Shown piece by piece: positions 2,574-64,000 of a DNA stretch of 64,000 nucleotides (position 1 is the stretch's first letter; each line of letters opens with the position of its first letter). The notes under the pieces were generated by a model that worked only from the letters and a program-made list of their open reading frames with translations, had not been told where the DNA came from and ran no database searches. The DNA is taken from assembly GCA_964512635.1 (NCBI GenBank), contig CAZEJB010000007.1, forward strand, positions 27,148 through 91,147, written 5' to 3'. Both the position numbers and the translations under genes were made by a program. The DNA is from an uncultured Planctomycetales bacterium (GTDB lineage Bacteria > 4484-113 > JAFGCY01).

Positions 2574-2587
2574 TTGTTACCTCTTGT

Positions 2588-2745: not shown

Positions 2746-2791
2746 GGGGGGCGAAGGCTAAGTGCCGGACTCCATCGGGCTCGCTAAGGGT

Positions 2792-3394: not shown

Positions 3395-3497
3395 ATTATA
3401 TGCGTGTCCGCGCTGTCGCCAGCTAAGGGCAAAGCAAAGGCCCCGGTTTCCCGGGGCCTCTGGTCAATCACTTCCAATGGCGGGCAGAGCCCGCGGA

Positions 3498-5912: not shown

Positions 5913-6020
5913 GGGTCTCTCCGGTAGGTTGGTCTACTGCTGAAATTATAGTACCCGCGATGCGCCGGACGCGCATCAAAGTGCCTCCGGGAGGCTTATC
6001 ACGCGCTTTAGCCCGGGATA

Positions 6021-7001: not shown

Positions 7002-7051
7002 CTGCAACCTCAGGCAGGCTGTACAGGTCGACAGGATACGAGGCCGTCGAT

Positions 7052-8002: not shown

Positions 8003-8069
8003 TCACAGTCTGAACCAGACCGGCACGTCAACTATACCCGTGGACTGCGGCGTTTGCAGTTAAAACGGG

Positions 8070-38436: not shown

Positions 38437-39477
38437 CTACCGCTTCGCCCGCGGGTGCGTCTTCTCGTAGCTCTCCAGCAGCTGCTTACGCGTGATCTGC
38501 GTATAGACCTGCGTGGTGTTGATGCTGCTGTGGCCCAGCAGCTCCTGCAGCAGGCGCACATCCGCCCCGCCCTCCAGCATATGCGTGGCGCAGGCATGCC
38601 GCAGCTTATGCGGTGAGACCGGCTTGAGGCAGCCGGCAAGCAGCGCCGCCTCATCAACGATGCGCTGGATCGCTCGCGGTCCGAGCGGCTGGCCGCGAGT
38701 GCTGAGCCACAGCGGCGCATCCTGGCCGGTTCCAGAAAGTCCAGCTGCGGCCAGTAAATCTCCCGCACCAGAGCTGCTCGCCCTGGCCGCCAGCAGCGGG
38801 CGCGACTGGCAGATGTAGCGTTCCAACAGCTCGGACGCGCGCTCGCCATAAGGCACTGTCCGCAGCTTGCTGCCCTTGCCGAGCACACTTAGCAGGCACT
38901 CGGAGCTGCGCAGGCTGCCCAGCCTCAGCCCGGCGCATTCGCTGACACGCAGACCGGCGGAGTAAAGGATGTGCAGGACTGCACTGTTGCGGAGGGCTAC
39001 CGGGCCCTTGATCTCGTCAAAGGCTCGCACCAGCGCCAGGATTTCGTCGACATTGAAATAGGCCGGCAGCTGGCGGCTGTACTTCGGTGCGCTGGGAGAG
39101 GTCTGCGCCAGCCCTGAGTCGCCAGAAGCGACATCTCCGGCACCTGGCAACTGTCCGCTGAACTCAAGATAGCGCCGGTAAGCCTTAAGCGCGCTGACTG
39201 CCCGGGCCGCACTGCGGCTGCTCAGCACTCGCTTCGGCCCGGCATCGCGGCGGCCCGGCAGGCTGCGCTGCATGATGTAGAGCCCGACCTGGCTGCGTCC
39301 CAGCGCCCGCGCAGTTTCAAGCCCGTTGCCTTCACACCATTTATGAAAGGCAGACACATCCCGGATGTAGGCTTCAGCCGTCCGTGCGGCGCGTCCAAGT
39401 ACCTGCTGCAGGTACGCGCCGAAGCTCAGCGCGGCCGCGCTGTCAGCCGACTCCTTATGGCCGGGAAAGTCTGACAT
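38437..39477 (-). CDS. Tyrosine recombinase XerC/XerD family
   Basis: ...LRHACATHMLEGGADVRLLQELLGHSSINTTQVYTQI.... The R..HxxR...Y catalytic signature is present. The start is taken at the ATG at 39477 (MSDFPGH...). Confidence 0.8.
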   Translation of the reverse strand: MSDFPGHKESADSAAALSFGAYLQQVLGRAARTAEAYIRDVSAFHKWCEGNGLETARALGRSQVGLYIMQRSLPGRRDAGPKRVLSSRSAARAVSALKAYRRYLEFSGQLPGAGDVASGDSGLAQTSPSAPKYSRQLPAYFNVDEILALVRAFDEIKGPVALRNSAVLHILYSAGLRVSECAGLRLGSLRSSECLLSVLGKGSKLRTVPYGERASELLERYICQSRPLLAARASSSGAGDLLAAAGLSGTGQDAPLWLSTRGQPLGPRAIQRIVDEAALLAGCLKPVSPHKLRHACATHMLEGGADVRLLQELLGHSSINTTQVYTQITRKQLLESYEKTHPRAKR

Positions 39478-39563
39478 GAACAAGTCCGGCGCGGCAGCGT
39501 TCAATGCATGTGGGCCAGGCCCAGCCGCGCGCAGGAATACTATACAATATATGAGTTAAACAA

Positions 39564-41432
39564 ATGACAATGCACAAACTCAAACGGATCCTGGGCGGGC
39601 TGCTCTGCGGGGGCACCCTGCTGCTGGCCTGCACCTGTGCGCGGGATGTGACGGGCGATATCGACGCCGAGCCCGAACCGGTGCTGGTGCGGCTGGGCAT
39701 GCGAACACAGGGGAACTTCGAAGCGGATACCTGGTATTACTTCGTGGTCAACTTCAGCAAGTATCCAACATCGAACGCCGACACAGCCCCGCTTGACTCG
39801 ATCTCCAGCGAAGACCGCGGAAAGAACTGGGAGCTGTATGTCATGTACCACCGTGACGAGACCCTTGGTGAGCAGCTGCTGACCCTGCAGCGCCCACGGG
39901 TTCCGACCCAGATCGGCACCGGCCTGGAGCCGGTGGATGCCGTGGCCGGTAACTTCACCCCCGGCGATGACACCCCGGCGGAAGTGGATGTGTTTGTCGC
40001 CTGCCGCGGCGCCAACCGAGTGCAACTGGTCAAGGGCCGCGAGCTGCTCCTGATCAACAACCGCTTTTTTGATGAGGCGGTTTCGATTGACGTCATGAAT
40101 GGCCCGGCGCCGCTGCGGGTCCACAGCCTTGATCTGGACGGCGACACTGACCTCGACCTGGCGGTGATTTATCAGGGCCGCGACGGCGAGGGCGGGCCTT
40201 TTGTGCGTTTCTTCCTGAGCGACGGCAAAGGCACTTTTGCTCTGCAGAGCGAACTGGCCCTGCCGGAGCAGCCTGTCGACAGCATGCTGGTGGATGTAAA
40301 CCCGGACACCGATACCGCGCCAGAGTTGCTGGTACTGACCCGCGATGCCGCGGGAAATGGCACGCTGCGGGTCTTCAACAATGACGGCGCAGCGGTAAAC
40401 AACTTCACCGCGGGTGATACCGCTGAAGTCGGCCTGAACCCGGTGCAGATCAGTTCCGGCAACCTTGATGCGGATGATCTGGACCTCGCGATCGCGAACC
40501 GCGGCGCCGACGGCGGCAACGGATCGGTCTCCGTGCTGCTTGGTGGTGGCGATGGTACTTTTGCCCCGGGCCCGGTACTGACAGCCACCGGTAACGTAAC
40601 CGGCGTCAGCATTGCCAAGTTCTTTGGTACCGGCAATGATGTCGCCTACACCACGCTGGAAGGTGGAACCGTCGGCAAGGTGAATGTCTATCTGAAGGAA
40701 ACTTCGGAGGACTTCGCACCGACCCCGATCAGCAAGGTCTTAGTCAACAACGACCGTCCGCAGTCCATGATTGCCTTTGACAGTGACGCCGACAGCCGGG
40801 CCGAGGCCTATGTGGTCAACGGTATCCCTGGCAGCGGCAACAGCGCGATGCTGATTGAACGTGGCGAAGCTGTCACCGAAACCGGGTCGACCAACACGAA
40901 CTTCGGTTGGAATGAGATTCAGCTGGCCTATCCCGTCGGCCTTGAGCCGAGCAGAATCATTCCCTCAACTCTGGATGCCAATGGTGTTCAGGACCTGATC
41001 ATCACCAACTCCGGTTCTGGCACCAATGGCAACAGCATCTCGCTGTTCTACGGCCTTGGCAAACACAACTACACCAATGCAGATGTCTTCTGGACCGACG
41101 AAGCGCCACAACTTCTGACCGCCCAGCCCTGGTACATCAGCCATACGATCGGGCCGAACTCCATCGAACTGGAGATCGACCCGCGACTGTTTTTCGACTT
41201 GACCAATGAAGTCCCGGAAGGCTTCCTGTTCGACTGGATGACCGGCACCACAGATGTCGAGCTGACCGACAACCTGCTGCAGGACGGCGAAATCCGTGAG
41301 CATTTCTCGAGCCCCGGTGCCGTGCCCTTCCGCGTGGACGTAATTGATAACGAGCAAACCAACCCCCGCGTACCGATCAGCGATGACGCGCCGCAGCAGG
41401 ACATCATCGACTGGTACGTTGAAACGAGCTAA
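39564..41432 (+). CDS. Lipoprotein with FG-GAP/VCBS (integrin-alpha-like beta-propeller) repeats
   Basis: Lipobox (LLLACTCA) and repeated ...DLDGDTDLDLAV..., ...VNPDTDTAPELLV..., ...GNLDADDLDLAIANRGADG... FG-GAP-type motifs. Confidence 0.6.
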   Translation: MTMHKLKRILGGLLCGGTLLLACTCARDVTGDIDAEPEPVLVRLGMRTQGNFEADTWYYFVVNFSKYPTSNADTAPLDSISSEDRGKNWELYVMYHRDETLGEQLLTLQRPRVPTQIGTGLEPVDAVAGNFTPGDDTPAEVDVFVACRGANRVQLVKGRELLLINNRFFDEAVSIDVMNGPAPLRVHSLDLDGDTDLDLAVIYQGRDGEGGPFVRFFLSDGKGTFALQSELALPEQPVDSMLVDVNPDTDTAPELLVLTRDAAGNGTLRVFNNDGAAVNNFTAGDTAEVGLNPVQISSGNLDADDLDLAIANRGADGGNGSVSVLLGGGDGTFAPGPVLTATGNVTGVSIAKFFGTGNDVAYTTLEGGTVGKVNVYLKETSEDFAPTPISKVLVNNDRPQSMIAFDSDADSRAEAYVVNGIPGSGNSAMLIERGEAVTETGSTNTNFGWNEIQLAYPVGLEPSRIIPSTLDANGVQDLIITNSGSGTNGNSISLFYGLGKHNYTNADVFWTDEAPQLLTAQPWYISHTIGPNSIELEIDPRLFFDLTNEVPEGFLFDWMTGTTDVELTDNLLQDGEIREHFSSPGAVPFRVDVIDNEQTNPRVPISDDAPQQDIIDWYVETS

Positions 41433-50531: not shown

Positions 50532-50620
50532 GCGCGAACTCGCGCTCCTCGACCAGAAGGTCGCTGATATGGGTGTCCTGCTCGCTCATGGGCTGATTAT
50601 AGGCAGCGCGGTCGTCGGCT
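50532..50620. repeat. Direct repeat copy B (degenerate duplicate of the acs 5' end and promoter)
   Basis: See 48393-48480. It encodes only a truncated remnant, [20 protein letters not shown].... Confidence 0.6.
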
Positions 50621-52055
50621 AGGACCCGCCCGCCTTACCGTAGTCCAGGGCCTGATAGCGCGCAAAACGCGGCAGTGCCCAGTCCCTGTACCAGTCGCGG
50701 GAGCTTGCCGTCGCCTGCAGCGCATTGGCGGCCCAGGCGCTGTAGGTCTGGCGGGCTGTCCCCTCGAAGCTGCGCTGCGCCAGCTCGGGGATAAGTTGGA
50801 TTGCCTCGGCCTGCTGTGCCTCGCTGAGCGGCTGGCCAATGCGCTGCTGCCAGTAGACATAGCTTTGCGCACCGGGCAGCGCCCAGAAATAGGCCAGCCG
50901 TCCGGCGGGCAGATTCCACAGGTCCGGCTGAGTGCCGCCGTAGAACACCAAGGGCGAAGTCGTCGCATAGTCCAGCGACGCCATGGCCTCCGCCTGCCGC
51001 GTTGCCGGCGGGGCCCAGCAGATATTCAGACGAGCCAGCCAGGTCATCGGCTGCTGGATCAACTGCGGGTCTGCTGTCCGCGCCTGGGCCAGCCGCAAAA
51101 AACAGCCCCGCAGTTCCGCCGCGAGTTCGAGGTCCCGGTCCTGCAGCGCCTGGTCAGTGATTCCGGTAAAAAGGTCATAGTCGCGCAGCAGCAGCGGCGG
51201 GTCATCCGTCAGTTCCGCGTCGAGCACCAGACCAGCCACGGCAAGGTTGCCGGGATCTTTGAAGTCCTCAAAGTGCTCGTGCACATAGCTCAGCGGAAAG
51301 ATTCGGGGCAGTTCAGCATGTGCTGCGCTGTTGCCGGCCCTGATCGACTCCCGGGCGCGCTGATAGTCATTTTGCTGCAGGTAGAACTCAGCCAGAGAGT
51401 AGTGCGCCCAGGCCTCGTCAGGCATCTCGCGGACGAGCGTCCGCAACAGTTTGCCTTCTTCACCGATGAAATGAAACAGACCCCCGCGGAATTCCGCGCG
51501 ATCCTCCGGCGTCATCCAGCCACCCTCTTCGCCGGCGCTGCCGCTGAGCTCCGGCCACAGGCGGTAGGCATGGTCCATCTGCAGCTCCAGAAAGCGCAGG
51601 CGCATGGTGATGCTGGCTTCCTTGCGCTCTTTAAGCACCTCGGCGAAGTCAGTCGCATCCCGGATCAGCCGCCACAGGGCTTCGCCTTCCGGCAGTTCGT
51701 TCTGGCCGTCCAGCAGATACCAGTTCGCCGCGCCAATGCTGCAGAACTCCCGCAGTTCAAAGAAGCGTGGATCGGGCACCATGTCATGCCAGTCAATGAG
51801 CACACTCTCTGGAACAAAGGCCGGATGCCAGCCCTGCTGGCGCTGGGCCGCGGTGCTGGCACGCTCAAAGACCGCGGCGCTGTAGCGGTCCCACAGGGCA
51901 TCGCCGGTTGGCACAGGCGGAGCAGAAAACACATCCAGCAGAGCGATTGCGGCTTCGGGAGGACTGGAACTGCCGGCTGCCAGCGCCGGGTCATCCCGGA
52001 AAGCTGTGCAAAGGAGCAGCAGGACGGTCACAAAGACGCAGCGCACAACACTCAT
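50619..52055 (-). CDS. Exported protein, paralog family A member 1
   Basis: Signal peptide. Shares VPTGD.LWDRYSA, DPGNLAVAGLVLD and L.AGN.A...ELP motifs with 53248..54981, and the GN/ELP helical motif with 60568..61950 and 63211..64000. Confidence 0.55.
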   Translation of the reverse strand: MSVVRCVFVTVLLLLCTAFRDDPALAAGSSSPPEAAIALLDVFSAPPVPTGDALWDRYSAAVFERASTAAQRQQGWHPAFVPESVLIDWHDMVPDPRFFELREFCSIGAANWYLLDGQNELPEGEALWRLIRDATDFAEVLKERKEASITMRLRFLELQMDHAYRLWPELSGSAGEEGGWMTPEDRAEFRGGLFHFIGEEGKLLRTLVREMPDEAWAHYSLAEFYLQQNDYQRARESIRAGNSAAHAELPRIFPLSYVHEHFEDFKDPGNLAVAGLVLDAELTDDPPLLLRDYDLFTGITDQALQDRDLELAAELRGCFLRLAQARTADPQLIQQPMTWLARLNICWAPPATRQAEAMASLDYATTSPLVFYGGTQPDLWNLPAGRLAYFWALPGAQSYVYWQQRIGQPLSEAQQAEAIQLIPELAQRSFEGTARQTYSAWAANALQATASSRDWYRDWALPRFARYQALDYGKAGGS

Positions 52056-52201
52056 TTAGTGATCATAGCGTCCGGCTGGACAAGCGCTGCTACCGAAACA
52101 CCCGCCTTGCTTTCTGTATAGCTTTGATGAAGCCGGCTGCAACCTTACCGCTGAAATGCTATATTCGCCCCACGCATCACCCTGCCAGAGAGGAGACGAC
52201 A

Positions 52202-53236
52202 GTGTCAACAAAGCCTGCTATTGATTCCAGTGAGCTTCAGGTGCATATGACCCTCTGCGCCCTGGCTTATACCGACGAAGTCGCTAACCCCGGTGAAACC
52301 GTGCCGCAGCAGATCCTGCGCATGCGCACCGACATCAACGCCGCGCTACGCAACCCGGCCTATGCCACTACCAACGACTGGCTGATCGCCTGGGGGCCCG
52401 GCCTGAGCTCCGACCGCAGCAACATGTTCTATGTCGCCAAGCAGCGCGGCGCGCCGGTCTTCGCCATCGTCATCCGCGGCACTGACTGGTCCTTTATCAA
52501 TGACTGGTACGAGGACGGTGATGTCTGGACCATGACCAACCCCTGGCAGGTTGGCCAGGTCGACGCTTATAACGAGATCTCCACGGGCTCGCATTTCGGC
52601 GTCCACCGGCTCAGTTCCCTAAAGAGCACCTACTACCTCGTCGGCGAGGATCCGGCCAGCGACCAGGCGGAGGTGGGCCTTAGCCCGCTGACTGCCTGGG
52701 AGTTCCTCTGCGGCCAGGCGCGCTGGCGCGGCGACATCGCCGTCTATGTCACCGGGCACAGTCTTGGCGGCTGTCTGGCCAACCTGCTGAGCTGCAAGCT
52801 GGACTATGAGCTGTCGATCGACCCGCTGCCGATCAGCCTCTTCAGCACGACCTTTGCCGCGCCGACCGCCGGCAACTCTAACTATGCACAGTATTACGAG
52901 CAGCGCTATGGCTATAGCGCTCTGCGCGTGTTCAACGAGCTTGACCTGGTACCCCGCGGCTGGAGCGACGTCGGCAGCATCCCGGACATGTATGAGCCCT
53001 ATATCTCCTGCCCCCTCAGCCTGCGCGCACTGTTTGACACCGTCTATGAAGGGCTGCAGCTCAGTGGCGTGGACTACACCCAGCCGGGCCCCAGCGAGAG
53101 CCTGCCAAACAGCATCAACATGCAGTGGCCGGACTTCTGCCAGCAGGTGGCCTGGAACCACAGCAGCCAGACCTACCTGCAGTTGCTCGGCGCGCCGCTG
53201 ACCGGCCCGAATACCGGCTTCCCAACCTGTCCCTGA
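52202..53236 (+). CDS. Lipase class 3 (alpha/beta-hydrolase, GHSLGG nucleophile elbow)
   Basis: ...VFAIVIRGTDWSFINDWYEDGD... ...AVYVTGHSLGGCLANLLSC.... Lipase_3 family signature. No signal peptide. GTG start at 52202 with an AGGAG RBS (alternative ATG at 52247). Confidence 0.7.
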   Translation: MSTKPAIDSSELQVHMTLCALAYTDEVANPGETVPQQILRMRTDINAALRNPAYATTNDWLIAWGPGLSSDRSNMFYVAKQRGAPVFAIVIRGTDWSFINDWYEDGDVWTMTNPWQVGQVDAYNEISTGSHFGVHRLSSLKSTYYLVGEDPASDQAEVGLSPLTAWEFLCGQARWRGDIAVYVTGHSLGGCLANLLSCKLDYELSIDPLPISLFSTTFAAPTAGNSNYAQYYEQRYGYSALRVFNELDLVPRGWSDVGSIPDMYEPYISCPLSLRALFDTVYEGLQLSGVDYTQPGPSESLPNSINMQWPDFCQQVAWNHSSQTYLQLLGAPLTGPNTGFPTCP

Positions 53237-53247
53237 CCTGAGTGGGG

Positions 53248-54981
53248 CTACTCGGTGCCTTCGCCCTTCAGCGGCCAGGTAGGCCGCGGCGGAAGCTGGC
53301 GGTAATCCAGTCGCGCCAGCTCGGCCAGCATGCTGGCTGTGTAGGCCGAGCTCAGCTGCTGCGCATAGTCCTGGGCCAGCCCGTTGAGCGCCCACGTAGT
53401 CAGTACCGCCTGGTTGTTCGGTATCTCCACAATCTCTGGTGGTACCTCGCCTGCTTCCGGCGGAGCGGGGAAGTCCTGTTTCACGCGCTGGTACTGCAGG
53501 CTGGCCCAGCGCGGCAGATAGTTGTAATGCTGATCCGCAGCGAAGACCGCGTTGAACCAGGCAGCGTCGCTCGGCCCCTCCCACTGGCCAAGCCGCAGTG
53601 GCCAGACTGAAGCGAGCCCGCCCGTCGGGAGTCCAAGAAAATAGGCGGTGTAACCTGCGGGATGGTTGTTGCGCTGTGCGTCCCGCACTGCTTCACCGGG
53701 CGTGTAGTCATACAGAAACTGCGGGATGCTGGCGAAGAGCGCAGCCTCCTGATCCAGCAGGTCCTGCTGGGCAGCTTCAACCGCCGGCGCGTTGTTCTGC
53801 CAGGCCTGCGCCAGGTCCGAGAGCAGGTTGCTTGCCGTGAACAGGAAGCGCGGATCGCTGCGCCGCGTGGCCGCCAGACGCAGGCCATAGACATGCAGAT
53901 CCTGCATCGCCGAGGCATCGCCAGAGAGCACGATGGACTGGACAAATGCGGCCAGGCCCCAGTCCTCAAAGAGCACGCCCGGTGGTGTTTCAGTGCAGCC
54001 GCTGTCCAGCACAAGCCCTGCCACCGCCAGATTTCCGGGATCGCTGAAGGTGCTGGACCTGCCCGCCACGGCACTGAGCGGAAAGAGATACGGCAGCTCG
54101 TAGACCGGTGCCTGGTTACCGGCCCGCAGCATGTCCAGGGCACCGGCCTCGTCGCCTTGTAGTGCCAGGTACTGGGCCCTCACATAGAAGGGCCAGGCCG
54201 ACTGCGGGTGCGCCGCGCTGAAGTCATCAAGAAATGCTGGCGGGCCGCTGGCAACCCTGCGGCCATGCAGCTGCACGCCGCTGCGCCGATCCGGCTGCGG
54301 CCAGCGGCCGATCGCATCCTGCAGCAGCCACTCTGCGTGCGTGATGTCGGACAAGGTTCCTTCTATTTCCAGGCTGCGCAGCTCGGCCGCGAGACTTGCC
54401 TGTCCACGTTCTCGCAGGATCTTCAGCGGAGCTAGACTCGCGCCGGCCATGACAGCGATGTCCGGCACCGCGCTGGCCTCGACCGCCGCCTCGTAAGGTA
54501 CGAGCCAGGGCGGCGCGGCCGGCGGCTGCTCGCGATTCAGGTAGGCCCGCTCGCGCCTGCCATCCAGCCAGTCATGGACTGACTGAACATAGGCGTTTTG
54601 CATGTCCAGTTCAAAGAAGCTGTACTCAGTCTGGCCATAGAGGCAATAGTGGTACAGCTCCCAGTAGCGCGGGTCAGCGCCAAGATCCGCCCAGCTGATC
54701 AGCGTGTCTTCGTCCAACAGCGCCGGGTGCCAGTCCTGCAGGTCGTCCGGCGGATTTAGCGCCCGCCGATACACCTCCGCGCTGTAGCGGTCCCATAGCT
54801 CATCGCCCGTTGGCACTGGTGCTGCGCCAAAGACTTCGCTGTACGACGGCAATTCCTGCGGAAGAACACTTGAACTCTCTGTTTCAGGACTGGCAGGTTC
54901 TTCAGCGGCCCGGGCGGCGGCCGCCAGCAGCAGCAGAGCGAGCAGGCAGCAGGAGATTGCAAGGCGCAGTGTGATGGACAT
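53248..54981 (-). CDS. Exported protein, paralog family A member 2
   Basis: Sec signal (…LLLLAAAARA-AEEP). Homologous to 50619..52055 throughout. Confidence 0.55.
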   Translation of the reverse strand: MSITLRLAISCCLLALLLLAAAARAAEEPASPETESSSVLPQELPSYSEVFGAAPVPTGDELWDRYSAEVYRRALNPPDDLQDWHPALLDEDTLISWADLGADPRYWELYHYCLYGQTEYSFFELDMQNAYVQSVHDWLDGRRERAYLNREQPPAAPPWLVPYEAAVEASAVPDIAVMAGASLAPLKILRERGQASLAAELRSLEIEGTLSDITHAEWLLQDAIGRWPQPDRRSGVQLHGRRVASGPPAFLDDFSAAHPQSAWPFYVRAQYLALQGDEAGALDMLRAGNQAPVYELPYLFPLSAVAGRSSTFSDPGNLAVAGLVLDSGCTETPPGVLFEDWGLAAFVQSIVLSGDASAMQDLHVYGLRLAATRRSDPRFLFTASNLLSDLAQAWQNNAPAVEAAQQDLLDQEAALFASIPQFLYDYTPGEAVRDAQRNNHPAGYTAYFLGLPTGGLASVWPLRLGQWEGPSDAAWFNAVFAADQHYNYLPRWASLQYQRVKQDFPAPPEAGEVPPEIVEIPNNQAVLTTWALNGLAQDYAQQLSSAYTASMLAELARLDYRQLPPRPTWPLKGEGTE

Positions 54982-55041
54982 CTGCAGATTCTAGAACAAA
55001 GTTGCAGTGGAGCAGTGCTGCCAGGTGGCCAAGGACCGTGC

Positions 55042-55881
55042 TCACTTGTCCGGCTGCGTGGAATTGTCGACCTTTCCGCCTTCCATCCGGCAAAGCTGCT
55101 TCTCGATTCGTTGCAGCTGGCGTTTGACCCGCCGCAGTTCAACCTGTACTTCGACCTCGCCCGGGGCCGGCTCGCGGATGATGTAGCCGGTGATCACGGC
55201 GGTGATGCTGCCGACGATTACGATGCCAAGGAAGGCGATGGAGATACTGACTACACGGCCCAGCGAGGTCACCGGCGCGACGTCGCCATAGCTGTCGGTG
55301 GTGGCCGAGGTGACCGCCAGCCACAGCGCGTCCCACCAGGTGTGGATGGTCCCGCCGTGCCCGCGCTCGGCAAAATAGAGCAGTGATGAGCCGCCAAGCA
55401 GCAGCAGCGCGGTGGCGATCAGCAGCAGGTCAACGGGATGGTGCAGCAGCGCGCGGACCCAGTAGCGCCAGGCCTCGCGGGCCTGGGGGCTGAGTCGGAA
55501 GACCAGCAGGAAGCGGAGCACCCTGAAGATGCGCAGCCAGCGCAGCGGCCAGAGCAACGGGATCGCGCCGAGCAGCCAGAGGCTGCGGGTCAGGACATAA
55601 GCCCGCTGGTCCGGGTGGGTCCGCAGATTGTGGAAGTACTCCCACCAGAAGTAGAGGCAGCACAGCGTATCAAGACCGACCAGGCTTAAGCGCAGGGGCA
55701 GCAGGCCCAGGTTCTCCGGGCAGATATCAAACATCAGCACAGTCGCGAGGCCAACCGACAGTACAGTCAGCAGTGCTGTCAGCAGCTCGAGGCGCAAACG
55801 CTGCCGCGGCCGCACTGGCGCGCTGACAACCGCTGTGCCTGCGGCTGCATCCTGTCCGCCTGGCGGGACTGCCTTGTCCAT
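55042..55881 (-). CDS. Voltage-sensor-containing ion channel (ion transport protein family) with a non-canonical pore motif
   Basis: S4-like LRIFRVLRFLLVFRL with Arg at every third position, and a pore-loop WWDALWLAVTSATTDSYGDV (TTDSYGD rather than TVGYGD). Confidence 0.55.
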   Translation of the reverse strand: MDKAVPPGGQDAAAGTAVVSAPVRPRQRLRLELLTALLTVLSVGLATVLMFDICPENLGLLPLRLSLVGLDTLCCLYFWWEYFHNLRTHPDQRAYVLTRSLWLLGAIPLLWPLRWLRIFRVLRFLLVFRLSPQAREAWRYWVRALLHHPVDLLLIATALLLLGGSSLLYFAERGHGGTIHTWWDALWLAVTSATTDSYGDVAPVTSLGRVVSISIAFLGIVIVGSITAVITGYIIREPAPGEVEVQVELRRVKRQLQRIEKQLCRMEGGKVDNSTQPDK

Positions 55882-55928
55882 AAGGCTAAGTGTAGCGCGG
55901 CCCGATCCGAGAGAAGCGAACTGACCAA

Positions 55929-57038
55929 GTGGAGCTCAGATACAATGCCTGCGTGACCCTCATCACTCCCCTGCTGGCTCGCGTTATTGTCGGTTTTGAA
56001 GACACTCTAGAGGAGTGCTTCGGCGATCCCAACTACGTTGAGCCGACCGCGGAAGAACGCGCCGCGGCGGAAGCCGCCGATCTGGCCGAGCGCGAACAGG
56101 ACCGGCAGGAGCGCATGGCCGCGCTCGAAGCACGATTGGCTGAACTGCCGGAAGACACCGATCCTCGTTACAAACAAATGGGAGAGTTCCTGTACTCGGT
56201 GGGGCTCCCAAACAAGCCGACGCACCATGGTCTGCTGGATCCAACAGAGCCGTTGAACGAAGGGCTGACCGTGCTGTGGGCTGATTCGTCTGAAGAACTC
56301 GCCAACAAGCACGCTCTTAAGTACGACCTGCCACGCCTCGACTTACACCTCCACAATCTGCCCCAACTGGTGCATGAACTTGAGAAACGCCCCATCCTGA
56401 ATCTGTACAAGAGCATGATCATTAGCACCGAAGGTCCAACTGAGGTCTATGCTGCTCTCAGGCGCCTGCTGGCAAGTCCAGCCAATTCTGACCGGACCAA
56501 GCTCTATGTTGGACTGCAGCGCGACTGGTGGGGCGAGAACAATGGAGACTTCTATTTGTCACTCGTCCTTGACCCTAGCTACAACGCCCTGTATGACGAA
56601 ATCGCTGCCGAGTATTCAATTCTACGAGCCTATCTCAAGAGCTTCAAACTGATTGACACCCCCCGGAGTGAGCATGGCGCGGGCCGGCGCGTCGAGCTGC
56701 TGATCGGTTCAACGGCTTCGCCGGAGCATGAGGTCTCGATGAGTTGCAGCGTCTTCGCCACGGAAGAACTGGCCTCAGAGCTGCGACGCGGCATCTTCGT
56801 AGGCCGTCGAGGGTGGCTGTTGGCCGACCATGTTACACCGCAACAACTGGCAGACCACCTTGCTACAGAGGTACGGGGGCTGGTTGACGTTAACTGGGAA
56901 CGTCTGTGCGTACATCTTTCAGAGTTCTTTGATTGGGATGGCTACGAATCCCTCTTTCAACTGTCAAACGCAGAGTTCGAGCGCCTGATCATGAAGCCAA
57001 GTCTGGACCTTTTTCAAAGAAGTAGCCTCAGGCGCTAG
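55929..57038 (+). CDS. Hypothetical cytoplasmic protein in a low-GC patch
   Basis: 369 aa, no recognisable family. Followed by a REP copy. Confidence 0.4.
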   Translation: MELRYNACVTLITPLLARVIVGFEDTLEECFGDPNYVEPTAEERAAAEAADLAEREQDRQERMAALEARLAELPEDTDPRYKQMGEFLYSVGLPNKPTHHGLLDPTEPLNEGLTVLWADSSEELANKHALKYDLPRLDLHLHNLPQLVHELEKRPILNLYKSMIISTEGPTEVYAALRRLLASPANSDRTKLYVGLQRDWWGENNGDFYLSLVLDPSYNALYDEIAAEYSILRAYLKSFKLIDTPRSEHGAGRRVELLIGSTASPEHEVSMSCSVFATEELASELRRGIFVGRRGWLLADHVTPQQLADHLATEVRGLVDVNWERLCVHLSEFFDWDGYESLFQLSNAEFERLIMKPSLDLFQRSSLRR

Positions 57039-57059
57039 TACGCGACGAGCAGATTGTTT

Positions 57060-57130
57060 CGCCGCGGGCCTAGGCAAGCTAGGCCCCTCCGATCTTCGGA
57101 GCAACGTGCTCAAAGCTAGGCAGCGAGCAT
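57060..57130. repeat. REP copy of the RAYT-associated family
   Basis: cgccgcgggcctaggcaagctaggcccctccgatcttcggagcaacgtgctcaaagctaggcagcgagc is about 85% identical to 16011-16085. Confidence 0.65.
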
Positions 57131-57230
57131 TAACTCCTGACGCGGGCCGGGTCAAGACGGGCGCTCCGGAGGCTTCGTCCTGCTCTGTGGCAGTGAGCAG
57201 GCTGTCAGTTCGCCAACTACAATCCCCCGC

Positions 57231-58040
57231 GTGCATCCCAACCAGGAGCAGCCCTGTGGCCCCAGCATGGCGCAGCGCATTGCGGTACGGCAGCGGCCGG
57301 CCGGGCGCGCTTTCATGTTCAACCGCTGGGAGCGCCTGCTGTTCGCGCACTGGGAGTACCCCGTCGCCGACCTGGCCTATAGGATTCCACAGGGTCTACA
57401 CCTCGATACATACGACGGCAAAGCATATATAGGCGTGGTGCCCTTCCTGATGCGCCGGGTCACCCTGGCCGGCTGGCCAGTACTGCCGGGAATCTCCAGC
57501 TTCCTCGAGCTCAACGTGCGCACCTATGTCTACGACGACTACGGCCGTCCCGGCGTCTGGTTCTTCAGCCTCGACTGCAACCAGCCGCTGGCGGTCATCG
57601 GCGCGCGGCGGCTGTATAACCTGCCTTATGAGCACGCCGCAATGCGCGCTGGCCTGGTCAGTGGAACCCAGTTGCATACTTACCAGTGCCGTCGGCGCGG
57701 GCACAGCTCCGCGCGCAGCTTTGGCATACCGACGCACGAACCTTATGGGCGGGCACAGTTCACTTGGCAACTATTGGAGACGCTGAAGGAGGCCGAGCCC
57801 GGCAGCCTGGAGTTCTTCCTCGCCGAGCGCTACCTGCTCTTCGCTTTTGACTATCGCCGCGAGAAGCTCTATAGCGGCGCCGTGCACCATGCCCCTTATC
57901 GCGTTGCCGCGCTGAAGGCAACTGTATGGGACGAGCAGCCGCTGCTTTGGAACGGCTTTGAGGCGCCCAACAGACCGCCCGACCACTGCATGCTGGCCGC
58001 CAGCGTCGATGTTGAGATCTTCAAGCTGCAGGCGATGTAG
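57231..58040 (+). CDS. Hypothetical protein, possibly DUF2071-like
   Basis: ...WERLLFAHWEYPVADL... ...YIGVVPF.... The family assignment is tentative. Confidence 0.35.
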   Translation: MHPNQEQPCGPSMAQRIAVRQRPAGRAFMFNRWERLLFAHWEYPVADLAYRIPQGLHLDTYDGKAYIGVVPFLMRRVTLAGWPVLPGISSFLELNVRTYVYDDYGRPGVWFFSLDCNQPLAVIGARRLYNLPYEHAAMRAGLVSGTQLHTYQCRRRGHSSARSFGIPTHEPYGRAQFTWQLLETLKEAEPGSLEFFLAERYLLFAFDYRREKLYSGAVHHAPYRVAALKATVWDEQPLLWNGFEAPNRPPDHCMLAASVDVEIFKLQAM

Positions 58041-58058
58041 CCCCAGCGCGCGAGTCGG

Positions 58059-59279
58059 CTAGGTCAGCTCGAGCTTCACCGGCGCTTCCACTTCGGCCTG
58101 GCTCCAGCGCTGCGTTTCCTCAATGATCGCGAAGCTCTCGATGCCGATTTGCGGATGCTCGACCAGGTGGATCGTCCGCGCCGCTCCGACCACGCTGTGT
58201 CCTTCCGGCCCATGTGTGATGGTCACCGTCGGCCGCGTTGGCAGGTGCAGCGGGAAGGATACCGGCTCGGCGATCTCGCCTGTCGAGAGGCGCAGCATGC
58301 TGCCGCGTGGATAGAGCAGCACATGCTTCAGGAAGGCGACGAAGATCCGCGGGCTGACACTGCTCTTGGTCTGGGCCAGCAGCATCTCGTAAGCCTGGTA
58401 GGGCTGGAAGCGCTCGCGCCAGTCGCGGGCGGTCACCAGCGCGGCGAACTTGTCGGCCAGGCTGACGATCTGGCTGAACTCGTGGATCGCCGAGCCGCGC
58501 TTGTTCTTTGGGTAGCCGCCACCGTAGTAGTTCTCATGATGCTCAAAGGCCACTATGGCGGCCGTACTGCTGAAAGAGTTGACTTCCTCAAGGATGCGGC
58601 GGCCGAAGTAGCTGTGCTTGCGCACCTCGCCCCACTCGCTCTCCGTCAGGCGGCCGGGCTTGGCCAGCACCCGCGGGTTGACCCGCAGCATGCCCACGTC
58701 ATAGAACAACGCAGCGATGCCGAGGTCCAGCAGGTGCGGCACGTTATAGCCCAACCCGGCGCCGATGCAGAGGCTGTAGACCCAGGCCGTCGGGCAGTGG
58801 CGCACGCAGCGCGCCTGGAAGAATCGTGTTTGTCGCAGCAGCTCAAAACAGCGCCGTGAGCTGAACAGCAGGTCGATCGTGTGGTGGATCGTCTCCTCGA
58901 CGACACGGGCCACCGCGGGCTCGCGGGTGCAGTGCTCGGGCCGGGCGAAGCTGGGGACCAGCTCCCAGAAGGCCTCGCGCAGCATACGCCCCATTCCGTC
59001 GTAGGTCGGCGGGCTGTCGTGGTTCAGCACCAGGCGCTTGTAGAACTCCACGTCCTGGTCGGAGAAGTGGATATAGATATGATCGACCTGCTGCTCACGC
59101 AGGCGCTCGATCAGCGCGCTGTCCAGCGCTGTGTTGTGGCGCAGCAGCATCTGGCCTCGGTGCTCCAGGTTGCGTGAAAGCACCATGCCAGGAACGGCCC
59201 GCTCGATCGGCACGCGGAATTCGGGCAGCGCCATCGCCGGCGCGTTATCCGTCCTGCTCAGTTCCTTGGCCACATCCAT
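58059..59279 (-). CDS. HD-GYP domain protein (putative c-di-GMP phosphodiesterase)
   Basis: HD motif region (...HLLDLGIAALFYDVGM...) and HHENYYGGGYPKN (GYP signature). Confidence 0.75.
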   Translation of the reverse strand: MDVAKELSRTDNAPAMALPEFRVPIERAVPGMVLSRNLEHRGQMLLRHNTALDSALIERLREQQVDHIYIHFSDQDVEFYKRLVLNHDSPPTYDGMGRMLREAFWELVPSFARPEHCTREPAVARVVEETIHHTIDLLFSSRRCFELLRQTRFFQARCVRHCPTAWVYSLCIGAGLGYNVPHLLDLGIAALFYDVGMLRVNPRVLAKPGRLTESEWGEVRKHSYFGRRILEEVNSFSSTAAIVAFEHHENYYGGGYPKNKRGSAIHEFSQIVSLADKFAALVTARDWRERFQPYQAYEMLLAQTKSSVSPRIFVAFLKHVLLYPRGSMLRLSTGEIAEPVSFPLHLPTRPTVTITHGPEGHSVVGAARTIHLVEHPQIGIESFAIIEETQRWSQAEVEAPVKLELT

Positions 59280-59324
59280 CTTCTTGCGGCCCCGTCTGGG
59301 CCAGAGGGTATATCGGCAGGAAGA

Positions 59325-59380
59325 CGCGCACTCAGCAATTGGCCGCGGTATGACGCGTGCGCACAGCTACAATCGCTGCA
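59325..59380 (+). promoter_or_regulatory. Conserved 5' sequence of cassette copy 1
   Basis: tgcgcacagctacaatcgctgcagtgcgtgcggtctacagcaaaccggg is nearly identical to 61958-62010. It contains a TACAAT -10-like hexamer 7 nt before the GTG. Confidence 0.35.
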
Positions 59381-60571
59381 GTGCGTGCGGTCTACAGCAA
59401 ACCGGGTGAAGTACTGAAGGGGTGGAACGAGGCTCTGCTTGGCCTGCGTGAGAGTCCTCTGCCTCGCTACTGGTGGGCTCAGGATCAAGCCGTCTCGGCA
59501 GCACGCCCCTGGTATGCCCGCGGGATCGGACTGTACCTGTTTGCGGCTGTGCTCAGCGCTGCGGTTTGCATAGTGATCTGGCTCCTCAATCAGCGGCTGG
59601 CGTCTTTCCCGGCCCGCAGCCTCACTGCGCATGAACTCGCCGCAGTCGAGCTTGGACTAGTCAGTGCCGCCGCCAGTGCTTCCGTCTGCCTCTATCTCAT
59701 TACGCTGTTTCTTTCCCGTTTACATCGCGCCATCTTCATCTGCCTCGGCTTTCTGGAAGCCCAGCCCAGGCGTGTGCAGCGGCGCAGCCTGGACGACCTG
59801 CTGGCAGTAGCCCGGCTTTCCGAAATGGAGTTGCTAGTTGGTCTCCTGGCTTATTGCCTTCGCAGCCTGCTGCCACCTCTGTGCGCAGTGTACTTTTCAG
59901 CGACGCTGTTCATCGTCTGCCTGCAAGCCACTGCCGGCGAGACTCGCGTGAATCCAATGCTTTTACTCTCCTACCTGCCGGTCGTACTGGCTGCCTGTCT
60001 GGGAGGAGCACTTGGGACGGCCAACAGCCTGCTGCTCAGCGTCGTACTGAGCCGCAGCTACCGTGCCAGCCTGCTGCCTCAGCTGGGCTCGGCGATGCAG
60101 ATTATGCTGCAGGCGGTCAGTATCCCGCTGCTGCTGGCCACATTCTCAGAGAGTGCTTTTCTCGGGTTGGTCTTCGATCGCTTTGGCCTTGCAGGCAGTC
60201 AGCTTGTGGTCATTGGGGAATTGTTCTTTCTGTTCCTCCTCGTCTACACGGCACGGAGAGTCACCGGACTGCGCTTCCTGCTGGGAAGCGGGCCATTGAT
60301 AGCGCTTGGACTGTTTCTTGTCTTGCCGCTGGCCTCATCCATCCTCGACGGCGATCATTCCGGTTTAGCGTCATTACTGCTGCTTGGTCTCCTTGCAGTT
60401 CAGTGTTGCTTTTGCGGCGTCAATCCGGTTTTGCCGAAGCTGTTGTCTGAAGGCAGTCATGAGGTCTTCCTCTTTACTATCAGCCTGATCCCGCAGCAGC
60501 TGGCACTGCTGCTGGTCCTGGCCGAACTGGCGCGGGATGCGGTGCTGCGTCGAAAGTGGGAGGGGACATGA
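59381..60571 (+). CDS. Polytopic membrane protein, family B copy 1
   Basis: About 10 TM helices. 45-50% identical to 61988..63214, with the same N-terminus (MRAVYSKPG.....GW..AL.GLRE.P) and C-terminus (ARDA..RRKWE). Alternative GTG start at 59357. Confidence 0.6.
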   Translation: MRAVYSKPGEVLKGWNEALLGLRESPLPRYWWAQDQAVSAARPWYARGIGLYLFAAVLSAAVCIVIWLLNQRLASFPARSLTAHELAAVELGLVSAAASASVCLYLITLFLSRLHRAIFICLGFLEAQPRRVQRRSLDDLLAVARLSEMELLVGLLAYCLRSLLPPLCAVYFSATLFIVCLQATAGETRVNPMLLLSYLPVVLAACLGGALGTANSLLLSVVLSRSYRASLLPQLGSAMQIMLQAVSIPLLLATFSESAFLGLVFDRFGLAGSQLVVIGELFFLFLLVYTARRVTGLRFLLGSGPLIALGLFLVLPLASSILDGDHSGLASLLLLGLLAVQCCFCGVNPVLPKLLSEGSHEVFLFTISLIPQQLALLLVLAELARDAVLRRKWEGT

Positions 60572-61950
60572 GAGGCGTTCAGGAGAGACAGCGGTCCGAG
60601 TATCAGCGCGATCCCCGCTGGCAAAATGCTCAGAGACGTATAGCCCTCCTTTTCTGGGCGCTGCTCTTGCTGTCGCCGCTGGTTCTGTGCATGCCGATCC
60701 TGGCGGCGCGTCTTCTGCCCGTGCGGCATCCGGCATCGACCGGCGACAAGCTGGCCGATGCACTGGTAGACGCATCAAGTCATGCGCGTAAGCACGCGCA
60801 GGGCAGGGAACTGCCAGGCAATGGAGTCCTGACTAGCGGTCTGCTGGAAGAGCTGGAGCCGGCACTTGAGGGCGAGCCTGGCTGGAACGAACTGCTGGTG
60901 CTGGTTTCGAGCTATGACCCGGGGCCAATGGCTGCGGGCGGTCAGGGGCGCACGGAAGAGATTATCGAGAAGGCCAGGCAAAGCGGGGATCTAAGCCCTG
61001 AGCTCATGCTTATTGACCTGCAGCTTGCTCGGAAGGCACGAAGAGCCGAGGCCATCAAGGCTCATCTTCTCTCGATAAAGGAAGAAGAGTTTGATCGTCA
61101 ACAGGAACTGGCAGGCCAGATTGAGCGCCTCGAAGCCCGGCACGAGGAGATGTACATTCAGAGCTTGAAGCAGCTTCAATCCGTGGACCAGGACAACGCT
61201 TATCCACTCTACCTGGAGGCCCAGGCTGAGCTTGAACGTGGGCATTACGACGCTGCACTGATCCTGCTCCGCAAGGGGAACGAGCTCCCAGCGGCCGATA
61301 TGCTTCCACTCAGCCCGCGAAAACAGTTTCTTGCGCTTTGCGCAACCGGGCGGCAGCCCAGGGATCAGCTCAGCGCGCTGTATCTGAGCTACGACTACAC
61401 CGGCCTGCTGAGCGAGCCATTCCTTGATATCTACGAGAGTCTGGTGGTCAACGCGCAGCGCGATTCTGACCTGCAGCTTATGGACGATCTGCATACTTAC
61501 CTGTGTCGCTTGGGCCGCGCCCACGGTGTCTCTCGCGACCTCAGTCGCAAGTGCTGGTTTGCGCTGGATGATCTGGCGAATGCGCGCCTTGGCAGCGTGG
61601 CTGGCGGCCGCAAGCTCAGCTCCGATCAGAATGCAGCAATCATCGGCCTGCGCCGGAAGCTGAACTCGCTCAGTCAGCAGTACAGTGTGCCGGCGTACCT
61701 TGGCAGCTCGCATTGGGCGACATACTCCAGTGGAGCTGGTCCCCAGGCCTGGCTCAGTTACGTCTCAGGCGTCCTGGATGAACAAGTCAGGTCTGTCAGT
61801 GAGGTTTATGACCAGGCCGGAGAATACGATTGGGAGGTCGACTGGTGTCGCAGCTCGATGCCTGGTGGCACTGTCTATGAGAGGCTGCGCGAACTTGAGC
61901 ATTTCGACTACCGCAGCCTGAACTGGACTGCCGACGGCTCAGGCCCCTAG
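60568..61950 (+). CDS. N-anchored protein, paralog family A member 3
   Basis: The start overlaps the upstream stop (ATGA). Signal-anchor (IALLFWALLLLSPLVLCMPILAA). Shares the ...LLRKGNELPAAD... motif with the other family A members. Confidence 0.55.
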   Translation: MRGVQERQRSEYQRDPRWQNAQRRIALLFWALLLLSPLVLCMPILAARLLPVRHPASTGDKLADALVDASSHARKHAQGRELPGNGVLTSGLLEELEPALEGEPGWNELLVLVSSYDPGPMAAGGQGRTEEIIEKARQSGDLSPELMLIDLQLARKARRAEAIKAHLLSIKEEEFDRQQELAGQIERLEARHEEMYIQSLKQLQSVDQDNAYPLYLEAQAELERGHYDAALILLRKGNELPAADMLPLSPRKQFLALCATGRQPRDQLSALYLSYDYTGLLSEPFLDIYESLVVNAQRDSDLQLMDDLHTYLCRLGRAHGVSRDLSRKCWFALDDLANARLGSVAGGRKLSSDQNAAIIGLRRKLNSLSQQYSVPAYLGSSHWATYSSGAGPQAWLSYVSGVLDEQVRSVSEVYDQAGEYDWEVDWCRSSMPGGTVYERLRELEHFDYRSLNWTADGSGP

Positions 61951-61957
61951 CCTGCCG

Positions 61958-61987
61958 CGAAGCCTGCGCACAGCTACAATCGTTGCA
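61958..61987 (+). promoter_or_regulatory. Conserved 5' sequence of cassette copy 2
   Basis: See 59325-59380. Confidence 0.35.
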
Positions 61988-63214
61988 GTGCGTGCGGTCT
62001 ACAGCAAACCGGGACCTCTGATTCAAGGCTGGCTGGCTGCTCTCCGCGGCTTGCGCGAGAACCCAATGGCGCATTACTGGGGAGCGCAGGACAGCGCTGC
62101 TGCCGCAGCTCGGCCGTGGCTTGCTCGCGGCAACTCCCGCCTGATCGTCGCTGCTGCCTTATGTGCTGCGATCGTGTTTTTCCTGCTGCGTCTGCAGACC
62201 AGCATGCAGCTTGAGGCCTCCGGCACCCTCGCCAGGCAGCAGATCGCCCAGGCCTACAGCAGCCTTGGCGGAATGCTGATTCTGCTGGGGGCTCTGCTCA
62301 TCTGCTGGCTGTGGATGCTGCAGCGCTTCTATCTCTGTGCCCAGCTCGCGCTGGCCTTTCTGGAGCCGCAGCCTAAAAACCGCCAGCGACGGAGCCTGGA
62401 CGACCTGCTGGCCGTCTCAAGTCTTAGTGAGCAGGAACTGCTCTGCGGCCTGCTGCTGCACTGCCTGCGACGGCTGCTGCTTCCCATGCTCATCTTTACA
62501 GCCAGCTGCGCCATCTGCGTCGCCTTTGCCCGCGGGCAGGCATTTCTGCCGGACCTGATAAGGTACGACAGCGCAAGCCTGACCGATTGGTTCCTGCTTA
62601 CAGCTGTCATCCTGGGCGCACTCATCAGTGGGATTCTTGGGGCACTGAACAGCATCCTGCTGCTGCTCAGCCTTGGTCTCAGCCGCAGACCCAGCCTGCT
62701 GCCTCTCAGCGGCGCCTGCGCCCAGGCGCTGACCCAGTTCGCCGTCGGTGCGCTGATGAGCGCGGCAATACTCAGCTCCGGTCCGCTGGCCTCTGACGCC
62801 GAGCCCCTGCCGGCATTCGAGGTCTACAGCGGCGTACTGGCCGCCTTGTTCTTCACCTGGCTGCTGGGCATCCTGGCGCTCTACCTTGCACGGCGCTGGT
62901 CATGGCTGCGCTTCGTGCTTGGGCACGGCATTCTGTTCCCGCTGTTCTTCGTGATCGGCCCACTCCTGGCCTTTGAGCTTTTCGCCGGCGACGACCCTGA
63001 GGGCAGCGCGACGCTTGTCCTGGGGCAGATCGTCATGCTGATCGCCTACTCTTTGCCCTCGCCCCTGCTTTTCGCGGCCTGGCTGCAGGGTTCAGGAGTC
63101 TTCTTTCTTTCGCTGCTGCTCGTGCTGGTGCCGGTGCAGGTGCTGGGTATCCTCGTGTTGGCCGGCTTTGCCCGGGACGCGATCCAGCGCCGCAAGTGGG
63201 AGACCCAGGCATGA
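61988..63214 (+). CDS. Polytopic membrane protein, family B copy 2
   Basis: GTG start. Homologous to 59381..60571. Confidence 0.6.
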   Translation: MRAVYSKPGPLIQGWLAALRGLRENPMAHYWGAQDSAAAAARPWLARGNSRLIVAAALCAAIVFFLLRLQTSMQLEASGTLARQQIAQAYSSLGGMLILLGALLICWLWMLQRFYLCAQLALAFLEPQPKNRQRRSLDDLLAVSSLSEQELLCGLLLHCLRRLLLPMLIFTASCAICVAFARGQAFLPDLIRYDSASLTDWFLLTAVILGALISGILGALNSILLLLSLGLSRRPSLLPLSGACAQALTQFAVGALMSAAILSSGPLASDAEPLPAFEVYSGVLAALFFTWLLGILALYLARRWSWLRFVLGHGILFPLFFVIGPLLAFELFAGDDPEGSATLVLGQIVMLIAYSLPSPLLFAAWLQGSGVFFLSLLLVLVPVQVLGILVLAGFARDAIQRRKWETQA

Positions 63215-64000
63215 AAGCTCTGCCCACCAGCAGCTCTGCGCCCCAAACTAGGCGATCAGACTTGTCAAAGCGCAGTCCGGTATGGCAACGCCGCCAGCGC
63301 CTCCTCCATTCTGCTGCTTGGGTGCTGCTGGCATTTGCCTGTATCGGAGCATGGCTGCCGCTGGCCCTTGATGCGCGGCGTCAGACACAGCCGCTTGAAG
63401 CAACCGGAGACGCCCTGCTGGATGAGTACATGCGTGTCATGGTCCAGAAGTGGCGCCGCGGCAGTCCGGACAACGATGACTGGCAGCTGGACCGCCGGGA
63501 AGTTGAAGCCCTGCGCGAACGCTTCCCTGACGATCCGCGAGTAAACGACCTGTACCTGCCGGCCATCCGCATGGAGATGGATTACGAGAAGGTTGATGTT
63601 GAGCGAACCACCTTTATTCGTAAATGTCAGAGCGAAGGGACTTCCACCCCGGCCATGGACTATCAACTGCTCGTCTCAACCCTGCGGCAGTGGCGCTCGG
63701 ATGCGGAGAAAGCGACCGGACTGAAACGGCCCCAGCGCTCCAGGTCCACGCCACAGCAGCTTGTCGACTATTACAAGGGCATCGAGAAGTGGATTAGCGA
63801 GCATCACGGGTCCGAGCGCGAGGCAGCCCTCGCCGCGGTACAGTCGGGGCCGGTGAGCTACGCCGCGGCCTACTACTTTGAAGCTGCTCGGCTCGCCGAC
63901 CTGGGCGAGTATGAAGGAGCGATGGACAAGCTGCGTGAAGGCAACCGCCAGCCTGACGCCCGGCCGAAGGCCTTCCCCTACTCCGCCTTCGTCGAGCTCT
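63211..64000 (+). CDS. N-anchored protein, paralog family A member 4 (partial; runs off the window end)
   Basis: ATGA overlap with the upstream gene. Signal-anchor (AAWVLLAFACIGAWLPLAL). Carries ...AMDKLREGNRQPDARPKAFPY.... Confidence 0.5.
   Translation, partial: MKALPTSSSAPQTRRSDLSKRSPVWQRRQRLLHSAAWVLLAFACIGAWLPLALDARRQTQPLEATGDALLDEYMRVMVQKWRRGSPDNDDWQLDRREVEALRERFPDDPRVNDLYLPAIRMEMDYEKVDVERTTFIRKCQSEGTSTPAMDYQLLVSTLRQWRSDAEKATGLKRPQRSRSTPQQLVDYYKGIEKWISEHHGSEREAALAAVQSGPVSYAAAYYFEAARLADLGEYEGAMDKLREGNRQPDARPKAFPYSAFVEL

Follow-up and report, generated by a model that had tools for sequence, protein, structure and literature searches.

Several bacterial envelope systems are encoded by a tight pair of genes, the first for a membrane protein and the second for a periplasmic protein anchored at its N-terminus. 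PqiA/PqiB, LetA/LetB, MlaE/MlaD and LptFG/LptC are all arranged in this way. A comparable layout, with equally tight gene coupling and sizes of ~400 and then ~460 residues, is found in a 64,000-nucleotide stretch of DNA from an uncultured Planctomycetales bacterium (contig CAZEJB010000007.1, positions 27,148 to 91,147; hereafter the window, with positions counted from its first letter). The window carries two tandem copies of a module in which a polytopic membrane protein (B1, B2) is followed by a signal-anchored protein (A3, A4), and two further members of the A family, A1 and A2, that stand alone. A and B are two protein families that have no Pfam or NCBIfam model, and A comprises at least 235 clusters at 50% identity. 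The best explanation as a whole, to which we assign a probability of about 0.5, is that A is a periplasmic scaffold or accessory protein and that B-A forms an envelope complex resembling a transporter.

B1 lies at 59381-60571 on the forward strand (396 residues from a GTG at 59381, the family-consensus start, in an open reading frame (ORF) that opens at 59357). Its TGA stop overlaps the ATG of its partner A3 (60568-61950, forward; 460 residues from this ATG, or 464 from an alternative GTG at 60556) in an ATGA at 60568-60571. After a gap of 37 nucleotides B2 follows (61988-63214, forward, 408 residues), and its stop codon overlaps the ATG of its partner A4 at 63211-63214, again as ATGA. A4 begins on the forward strand at 63211 and is cut by the window end at 64000, with 263 codons present; its ortholog in metagenome-assembled genome (MAG) SJ870 (GCA_020849855.1) is ~466 residues at full length. 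A preliminary description of this DNA had A3 and A4 coupled to a membrane protein, and this is borne out.

B is directly upstream of A in 10 of the 10 anchor-type loci inspected, which are the two of the window, two tandem pairs in L003 of SJ870, and one each in L004 (in the order A-B-A), L005, L006, L014, L036 and L037/L038. The stop/start overlap was read as sequence in the window, and elsewhere the gene calls for B and A are contiguous or overlapping. The pairing is kept down to ~33% identity in B and ~25% in A, and in all ten loci examined B is an obligate partner of the anchored A subclass. There are at least two B-A modules in the genome of the window and at least three in SJ870. The B-linked A proteins have a cytoplasmic juxtamembrane motif in common, (D)PxWQxRQ, which in the tail of A3 reads DPRWQxxQRR. 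The stand-alone A members (A1, A2, P0013, P0162, P0015 and those of 20 JGI loci) are found in unrelated, mostly housekeeping neighbourhoods, and examples of genes near A-family members elsewhere are rplS/lepB, RNR, Pol B and an apparent pheT. The 20 JGI loci were obtained with a 14-sequence subset, as the full 135-sequence A alignment is too diverse for DNA patterns, and they are biased to the stand-alone type. One stand-alone locus (L032) has a distant B-like ORF ~2 kb downstream, and another locus (L023) carries a tandem A-A pair. In two contigs the stand-alone A gene is close to lepB-rplS(-trmD-rimM-rpsP) (L015, 1574-3681; L009, 1077-11590), possibly a conserved chromosomal position of one A orthologous group. 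As far as the data show, both A and B are confined to uncultured bacteria.

A1 (50619-52055, reverse strand, 478 residues) and A2 (53248-54981, reverse strand, 577 residues, without a Pfam match) are clear paralogs (BLASTP E 3e-45, 31-32% identity). Links drawn within the window alone are weak (A2-A3 E 5e-5, A2-A4 E 0.01, A3-A4 E 0.03), and are firmed by the full-length A4 ortholog of SJ870, which is ~92% identical to A4 over the common part and matches A3 with E 9e-15 and A2 with E 2e-5. Homology of the four copies is thus upheld: the peptides previously quoted for them are all present at their positions, and a family profile recovers A1 (P0010, 2e-210), A3 (P0011, 1.5e-141) and the A4 ortholog (P0012, 5e-68). 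This profile was built from A1-A4 and the SJ870 ortholog of A2 (P0002, 69% identity), and an exhaustive HMMER search was carried out against 1.84 billion representatives of 50%-identity clusters. A word-indexed homology search, with A2 alone or with an alignment of five A sequences, had returned only A2 and its SJ870 ortholog; the word index is too insensitive for this family, and the exhaustive search was therefore needed. It matched 235 representatives at E<=1e-3, 117 at E<=1e-10 and four at E<=1e-30. Alignment of the copies and a database search, the course proposed in the preliminary description, has thus recovered a specific family.

Members of the A family are mostly 430-550 residues long, and the profile matches span an N-terminal part (~45-118) and a core (~200-395). 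The ordered motifs are PTGDALFDRYA, then LPDxxLAxWExxFGxDPRYWELRY, a single hairpin resembling a tetratricopeptide repeat (TPR) that ends in AGNxAPxNxxPxPFPxS, LSGDxxxLxxxHxFACR, and a C-terminal DYxxL, which the A copies share as (L/F)DY(R)xL. In the alignment of 135 sequences, the columns conserved at >=90% are, in A1 numbering, G51, D52, L54, D56, D95, P96, W99, L101, Y219, G241, N242 and P254. The GN...P motif noticed earlier coincides with the near-invariant G241, N242 and P254, and is a real hallmark of the family. The TGD of VPTGD.LWDRYSA, which had been assigned to A1 and A2, is indeed present in both, but it is not restricted to them, being found in all four copies. No Pfam, NCBIfam or PADLOC family covers A outside a TPR-like unit of ~35 residues, and no informative domain fusion emerged when the 40 longest members were scanned with Pfam. 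From its sequence features, A is a specific, previously undescribed family of putatively exported proteins in uncultured bacteria.

All A proteins carry an N-terminal hydrophobic segment, with TGD ~30 residues further on. As read by eye from the sequence, A1 and A2 are of the signal-peptide type (ALA|AG and ARA|AE), and A3 and A4 are of the anchor type, with a charged tail of ~35 residues before the transmembrane (TM) anchor; the assignment of the two types agrees with that made before. In A1 the predicted Sec signal peptide is followed by what is modelled as an all-alpha, TPR-like solenoid. The AlphaFold2 (AF2) model of A1, made with the 135-sequence alignment, has ~20 helices and a disordered stretch at residues 364-410 (pLDDT, the predicted local distance difference test, 77.7; pTM, the predicted template modelling score, 0.79). 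In this model helices 53-67 and 96-115 have TGD (50-52) and DP (95-96), respectively, exactly at their N-termini, and GN (241-242) is at the C-terminus of helix 231-243. As the hallmark residues occupy helix-capping positions, they would define the fold and a loop surface rather than a catalytic centre, and the invariant residues look like structural caps and turns in the model, not like a catalytic set.

B1 and B2 are paralogs (BLASTP E 3e-41). Seven relatives of B were found in a word-indexed search, and scans with a B profile returned SJ870 only among the genome contigs and nothing among the metagenome contigs. None of ten B proteins has a Pfam match even at E<=10, and there is no sequence match in the PDB. 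The AF2 model of B2 (pLDDT 77.4) was built from only seven sequences, and its Foldseek search against the PDB gave no significant match (best E 0.23, TM-score 0.20), a weak negative given the depth of the alignment. Hydropathy, DSSP on the model and the positive-inside rule predict an N-in/C-in topology with ~8 TM helices, in which residues 338-367 may form a re-entrant hairpin. Of the 61 positions of B with >=90% conservation, at least 45 by manual tally belong to predicted cytoplasmic segments, and predicted periplasmic loops contain none. The conserved segments, all predicted to be cytoplasmic, are an N-terminal amphipathic region (W15, NPL25-27, YW30-31, W44, R47), the TM2-TM3 loop (FLExQ...R..LDDLLAVS.LSE), the TM6-TM7 loop (Y..ARR....R) and the C-terminal ARDAxxRRKW.

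The B genes of the window are both preceded by near-identical DNA, TGCGCACAGCTACAATCG(C/T)TGCA-GTG. This includes a -10-like TACAAT box, located 7 nucleotides 5' of the start codon in each case (59368-59373 for B1 and 61975-61980 for B2, both forward). With one box before each B gene, and the second inside the 37-nucleotide A3-B2 gap, each B-A pair appears to have a promoter of its own. The same geometry precedes B genes in eight loci besides the window. Of the 11 B genes inspected in total, 10 have a TAnAAT box 7-8 nucleotides 5' of the start codon, the exception being the operon-internal gene of L014; for L004 and L036 the start used in this count is an upstream GTG read by eye and not the printed one. 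The pattern TAnAAT-N7-RTG occurs four times in the window (59340-59383, 61960-61990, 57218-57233, and 15994-16009 on the reverse strand) against 0.74 expected, and none of 100 shuffles reaches four. Three of the four matches end exactly at predicted starts, namely those of B1, B2 and a DUF2071 protein (57231-58040, forward). A TAnAAT box 7 nucleotides before the start codon is the geometry of leaderless mRNAs. This suggests that B-A transcripts may be leaderless, and that leaderless transcription is used in this lineage.

A1 and A2 are mutual closest relatives, the ortholog of A2 apart. The closest relative of A3 is a protein from another metagenome (P0042, 31%), and those of A4 are P0055 and P0024. 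Since A3 and A4 each have a closer relative elsewhere, the cluster seems to consist mostly of old paralogs, with no recent local burst. The local expansion that had been proposed therefore does not hold in the sense of a recent burst; the region has instead two old tandem B-A modules and an old A1/A2 pair. Synonymous sites are saturated among the paralogs (20-32% amino acid identity), and the ratio of nonsynonymous to synonymous substitution rates (dN/dS) was thus taken from ortholog pairs between the window and SJ870. It is 0.26 for A2, 0.18 for A4 and 0.14 for B2, and 0.08-0.24 for other ortholog pairs (lipase, HD-GYP, DUF2071, channel, ACS). The values of 0.18-0.26 in A indicate purifying selection, with A2 merely the fastest of the genes compared.

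Gene content in the A/B region is fluid. Relative to the syntenic SJ870 stretch (L001), A1, C1, C2, orf369 and B1-A3 are extra in the window, and MerR-ArsC-MIP is missing from it. Between B2 and the gene for an HD-GYP protein, a phosphodiesterase (58059-59279, reverse; the divergent neighbour of B1), the window has B1-A3 and SJ870 has MIP-ArsC-MerR. In a third relative (L006) ArsC-MerR also adjoins a B2-type gene, and so the MerR/ArsC arrangement seems to be ancestral and to have been replaced in the genome of the window. A scan of the whole window with the A and B profiles found no copies beyond A1-A4, B1 and B2.

C1 (48523-49449) and C2 (49460-50209), both on the reverse strand, are paralogs (BLASTP E 3e-15) with exported or lipoprotein-like features and without a Pfam, NCBIfam or PADLOC match. 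Between A2 and the DUF2071 gene are the genes for a K-channel-like protein (55042-55881, reverse) and for orf369 (55929-57038, forward), which is without a signal peptide. The G+C content of the window is ~62%, and many of the long antisense ORFs in the ORF list are accordingly spurious. An Rfam scan of the window found no RNA genes. A tyrosine recombinase (Phage_integrase, E 5e-35; 38437-39504, reverse) is encoded ~11 kb upstream of the A/B region. The window also encodes a repertoire of surface proteins with cellulosome-type modules: a subtilase with dockerin (24678-26336, forward), a protein with cohesin, fn3 and redoxin (28704-31151, reverse) and an FG-GAP protein (39564-41432, forward). 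Giant dockerin and PKD proteins also flank A-family members in L009 and L011, and dockerin, cohesin and PKD surface proteins are numerous in the genomes with A and B. Preceding RtcB and the double B-A module in L003 is a tandem array of seven genes (2819-8290), each for a protein of ~200-234 residues. BLAST detects paralogy among six of them (28-68% identity, lowest E 5e-56) and no link of the first (2819-3523) to the rest. Of the two scanned, neither this gene nor 3669-4334 has a Pfam family, with sub-threshold matches in the latter, and the array genes resemble none of the window proteins compared. A Pfam scan of the genes flanking B-A in L014, L004, L003 and L001 gave nothing informative.

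A different account of the resemblance among the A proteins is that it reflects a generic TPR consensus found in unrelated exported proteins. The PDB sequence matches of the A profile are in fact consensus TPR designs only (E 1e-6), limited to positions 185-220, and A1 passes Pfam TPR_19 once (residues 203-247, 26.2 bits against a cut-off of 25), its other TPR models falling below cut-off. However, A2, A3 and A4 have no TPR match above the Pfam cut-off, and none of A1-A4 shows several tandem 34-residue repeats above the Pfam gathering thresholds (TPR_1/2/16/17/19). In ten close members a single TPR_17 is the sole Pfam match, and only 2-4 of the 40 longest members have any TPR match, in each case of a single unit. 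The homology of A extends far beyond this unit, to TGD, DPRYW, the GN..P..FP loop, LSGD..H.F.CR and the C-terminal DY..L. The 117 representatives at E<=1e-10 are of similar length and have the same motif order, and most members are without a TPR match in Pfam. A shared generic consensus is thus a negligible explanation. Of the TPR-like helix and motif originally described, the helix is generic TPR and everything around it is specific to the family. Like the TPR and TPR-like solenoids (CTPR designs, IFIT, P58IPK), A is predicted to be made of all-helical hairpin repeats, and one unit of A1 fits the consensus; unlike in them, TPR can be recognised in only ~35 of the 450-550 residues, and the hallmark motifs are family-specific. 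A Foldseek search of the A1 model against the PDB gave only weak TPR/IFIT-like matches (best E 0.02, TM-score<=0.25). The locus had also been called typical of immunity or polymorphic-toxin-related loci, which in concrete form would make the class-3 lipase gene between A1 and A2 (52196-53236, forward; Lipase_3 E 7e-14, with GHSLGG as its GxSxG motif) encode a secreted Tle-like effector, and A1 and A2 its periplasmic immunity proteins. No signal peptide is evident in the lipase, its gene has an A gene on either side, and the A2-lipase arrangement is retained in SJ870, a synteny that is known from these two close relatives only. The variable gene content (A1, C1, C2, B1-A3 and orf369 being absent from the syntenic stretch) would also fit, as would a sub-threshold match of orf369 to Imm8 (E 0.017; 15.7 bits, cut-off 27); the only other match of orf369 is to LPD39, also sub-threshold (E 0.023). 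Type VI secretion system (T6SS) Tle/Tli pairs likewise have a GxSxG lipase gene next to multi-copy genes for periplasmic proteins. However, the lipase gene points away from A1 and towards A2, which leaves no common operon, an adjacent lipase is found in 0 of ~25 other A-family loci with called genes, and SJ870 retains the lipase with a single A copy. No Imm, SUKH-like or toxin match was found for A1-A4, B1 and B2 in Pfam and NCBIfam, no toxin domain in the neighbouring proteins scanned, no match to Rhs, PAAR or VgrG models, and no PADLOC match for ten proteins of the region at E<=0.01. T6SS or other delivery genes were not seen in the window and the fetched loci, no genome-wide T6SS search having been made. 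The purifying selection on A gives no sign of an arms race, and the copies are old paralogs whose relatives lie in housekeeping contexts. The immunity reading is thus not sustained, and the effector and immunity roles in particular are largely refuted and very improbable.

A signalling role for B-A, in which the A solenoid would sense a periplasmic cue and B would relay it through its conserved cytoplasmic loops, fits the concentration of B conservation on the cytoplasmic face. The HD-GYP phosphodiesterase next to B1, and an extracytoplasmic function (ECF) sigma/anti-sigma pair near B-A in L037, point the same way. However, no kinase, GGDEF, HAMP, anti-sigma or other output domain was found in A or B, and the genes upstream of B vary by locus (HD-GYP, RtcB, MerR, unknown proteins), so that there is no fixed signalling partner; this role is unlikely, although less so than the effector and immunity pairing. 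In the preferred reading, that of a transport-like envelope complex, A3 and A4 would form membrane complexes with B1 and B2, in which B would be a cytoplasm-facing transport or energising module and A its periplasmic scaffold or substrate-binding accessory. A1 and A2 would be soluble periplasmic paralogs with a related binding or scaffolding job and no dedicated B. The weakest step is a possible descent of B from ABC-2 permeases (type V exporters) of the ATP-binding cassette (ABC) class, with the ATPase supplied by a gene elsewhere. Between TM2 and TM3, B has a segment that resembles an ABC-2 permease motif, although an hhalign check of this was not significant. In that comparison, of the B alignment with one of E. 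coli YbhR/YbhS/YadH, only B 130-162 (RRSLDDLLAVSSLSEQELLCG in B) aligned, to YbhR 198-229. The aligned segment and the ABC-2 motif RExERGTLExLLVSP are both between TM2 and TM3 on the cytoplasmic side, a co-location that is suggestive and not significant. In L037/L038 B is preceded, at a distance of 1.3 kb, by a gene for a DrrA-like ABC ATPase (2521-3366). The C-terminal 129 residues of this ATPase are encoded a second time (4261-4641, 81% identical) in a fragment that ends 77 nucleotides before B, and an unrelated 238-residue gene is on the opposite strand between the ATPase and its fragment. The locus looks like a rearranged remnant of what may have been an ATPase-B-A operon.

Several results weigh against this transport-like complex, in particular against its ABC-2 step. 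Gene order and overlap would imply co-expression of B and A only, and give no direct sign of a physical complex. Stand-alone A copies show that the fold works without B, so that 'accessory of B' cannot be the whole story. The hhalign match has a probability of 2% (P 0.024) over 32 columns, and an ABC2_membrane match is absent for ten B proteins at the permissive Pfam threshold used above. With tblastn, no ABC ATPase was found near 9 of the 10 B-A loci, the window included, L037/L038 being the exception, although one could act in trans. No type V exporter is among the top 50 Foldseek PDB matches of the B2 model, again a weak negative, as the model rests on only seven sequences. An ABC-2-like origin of B is thus a lead, and a rather doubtful one. 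A broader and similarly tentative view is that B-A is a new envelope machine. In such a machine B, either a strongly diverged ABC-2 derivative or wholly new, would present its conserved face to the cytoplasm and be permanently paired with A, a helical, rapidly diverging subunit on the periplasmic side that would determine substrate specificity. The module would be present in several copies per genome and expressed from a leaderless operon, with the soluble A paralogs serving, for substrates of the same class, as free receptors or chaperones in the periplasm. Should B-A prove to be a complex for transport or assembly, this lineage would have an envelope system specific to it, through which its cell-surface biology could be approached. 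At present its value appears to lie mainly in annotation, through new family definitions, a conserved operon and putative leaderless promoters.

The PqiA/PqiB-type pairs differ from B-A in that there is no kinship of sequence or fold, the MCE domain or LptC beta structure of the known partners contrasting with the predicted helical solenoid of A; the likeness is thus one of layout only. ABC-2 permeases such as YbhR, YbhS and YadH have 6 TM helices against ~8 and a possible re-entrant hairpin in B, and A differs from GldG in being an all-alpha accessory. The features that B has in common with ABC-2 permeases are an N-in topology, N-terminal amphipathic helices, and the conserved acidic SLDDLLAVSxLSxxELLxG between TM2 and TM3, the sole segment that hhalign aligns. 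The GldF/GldG-type arrangement is also like that of B-A, in which the gene after B encodes a periplasmic protein with a membrane anchor.

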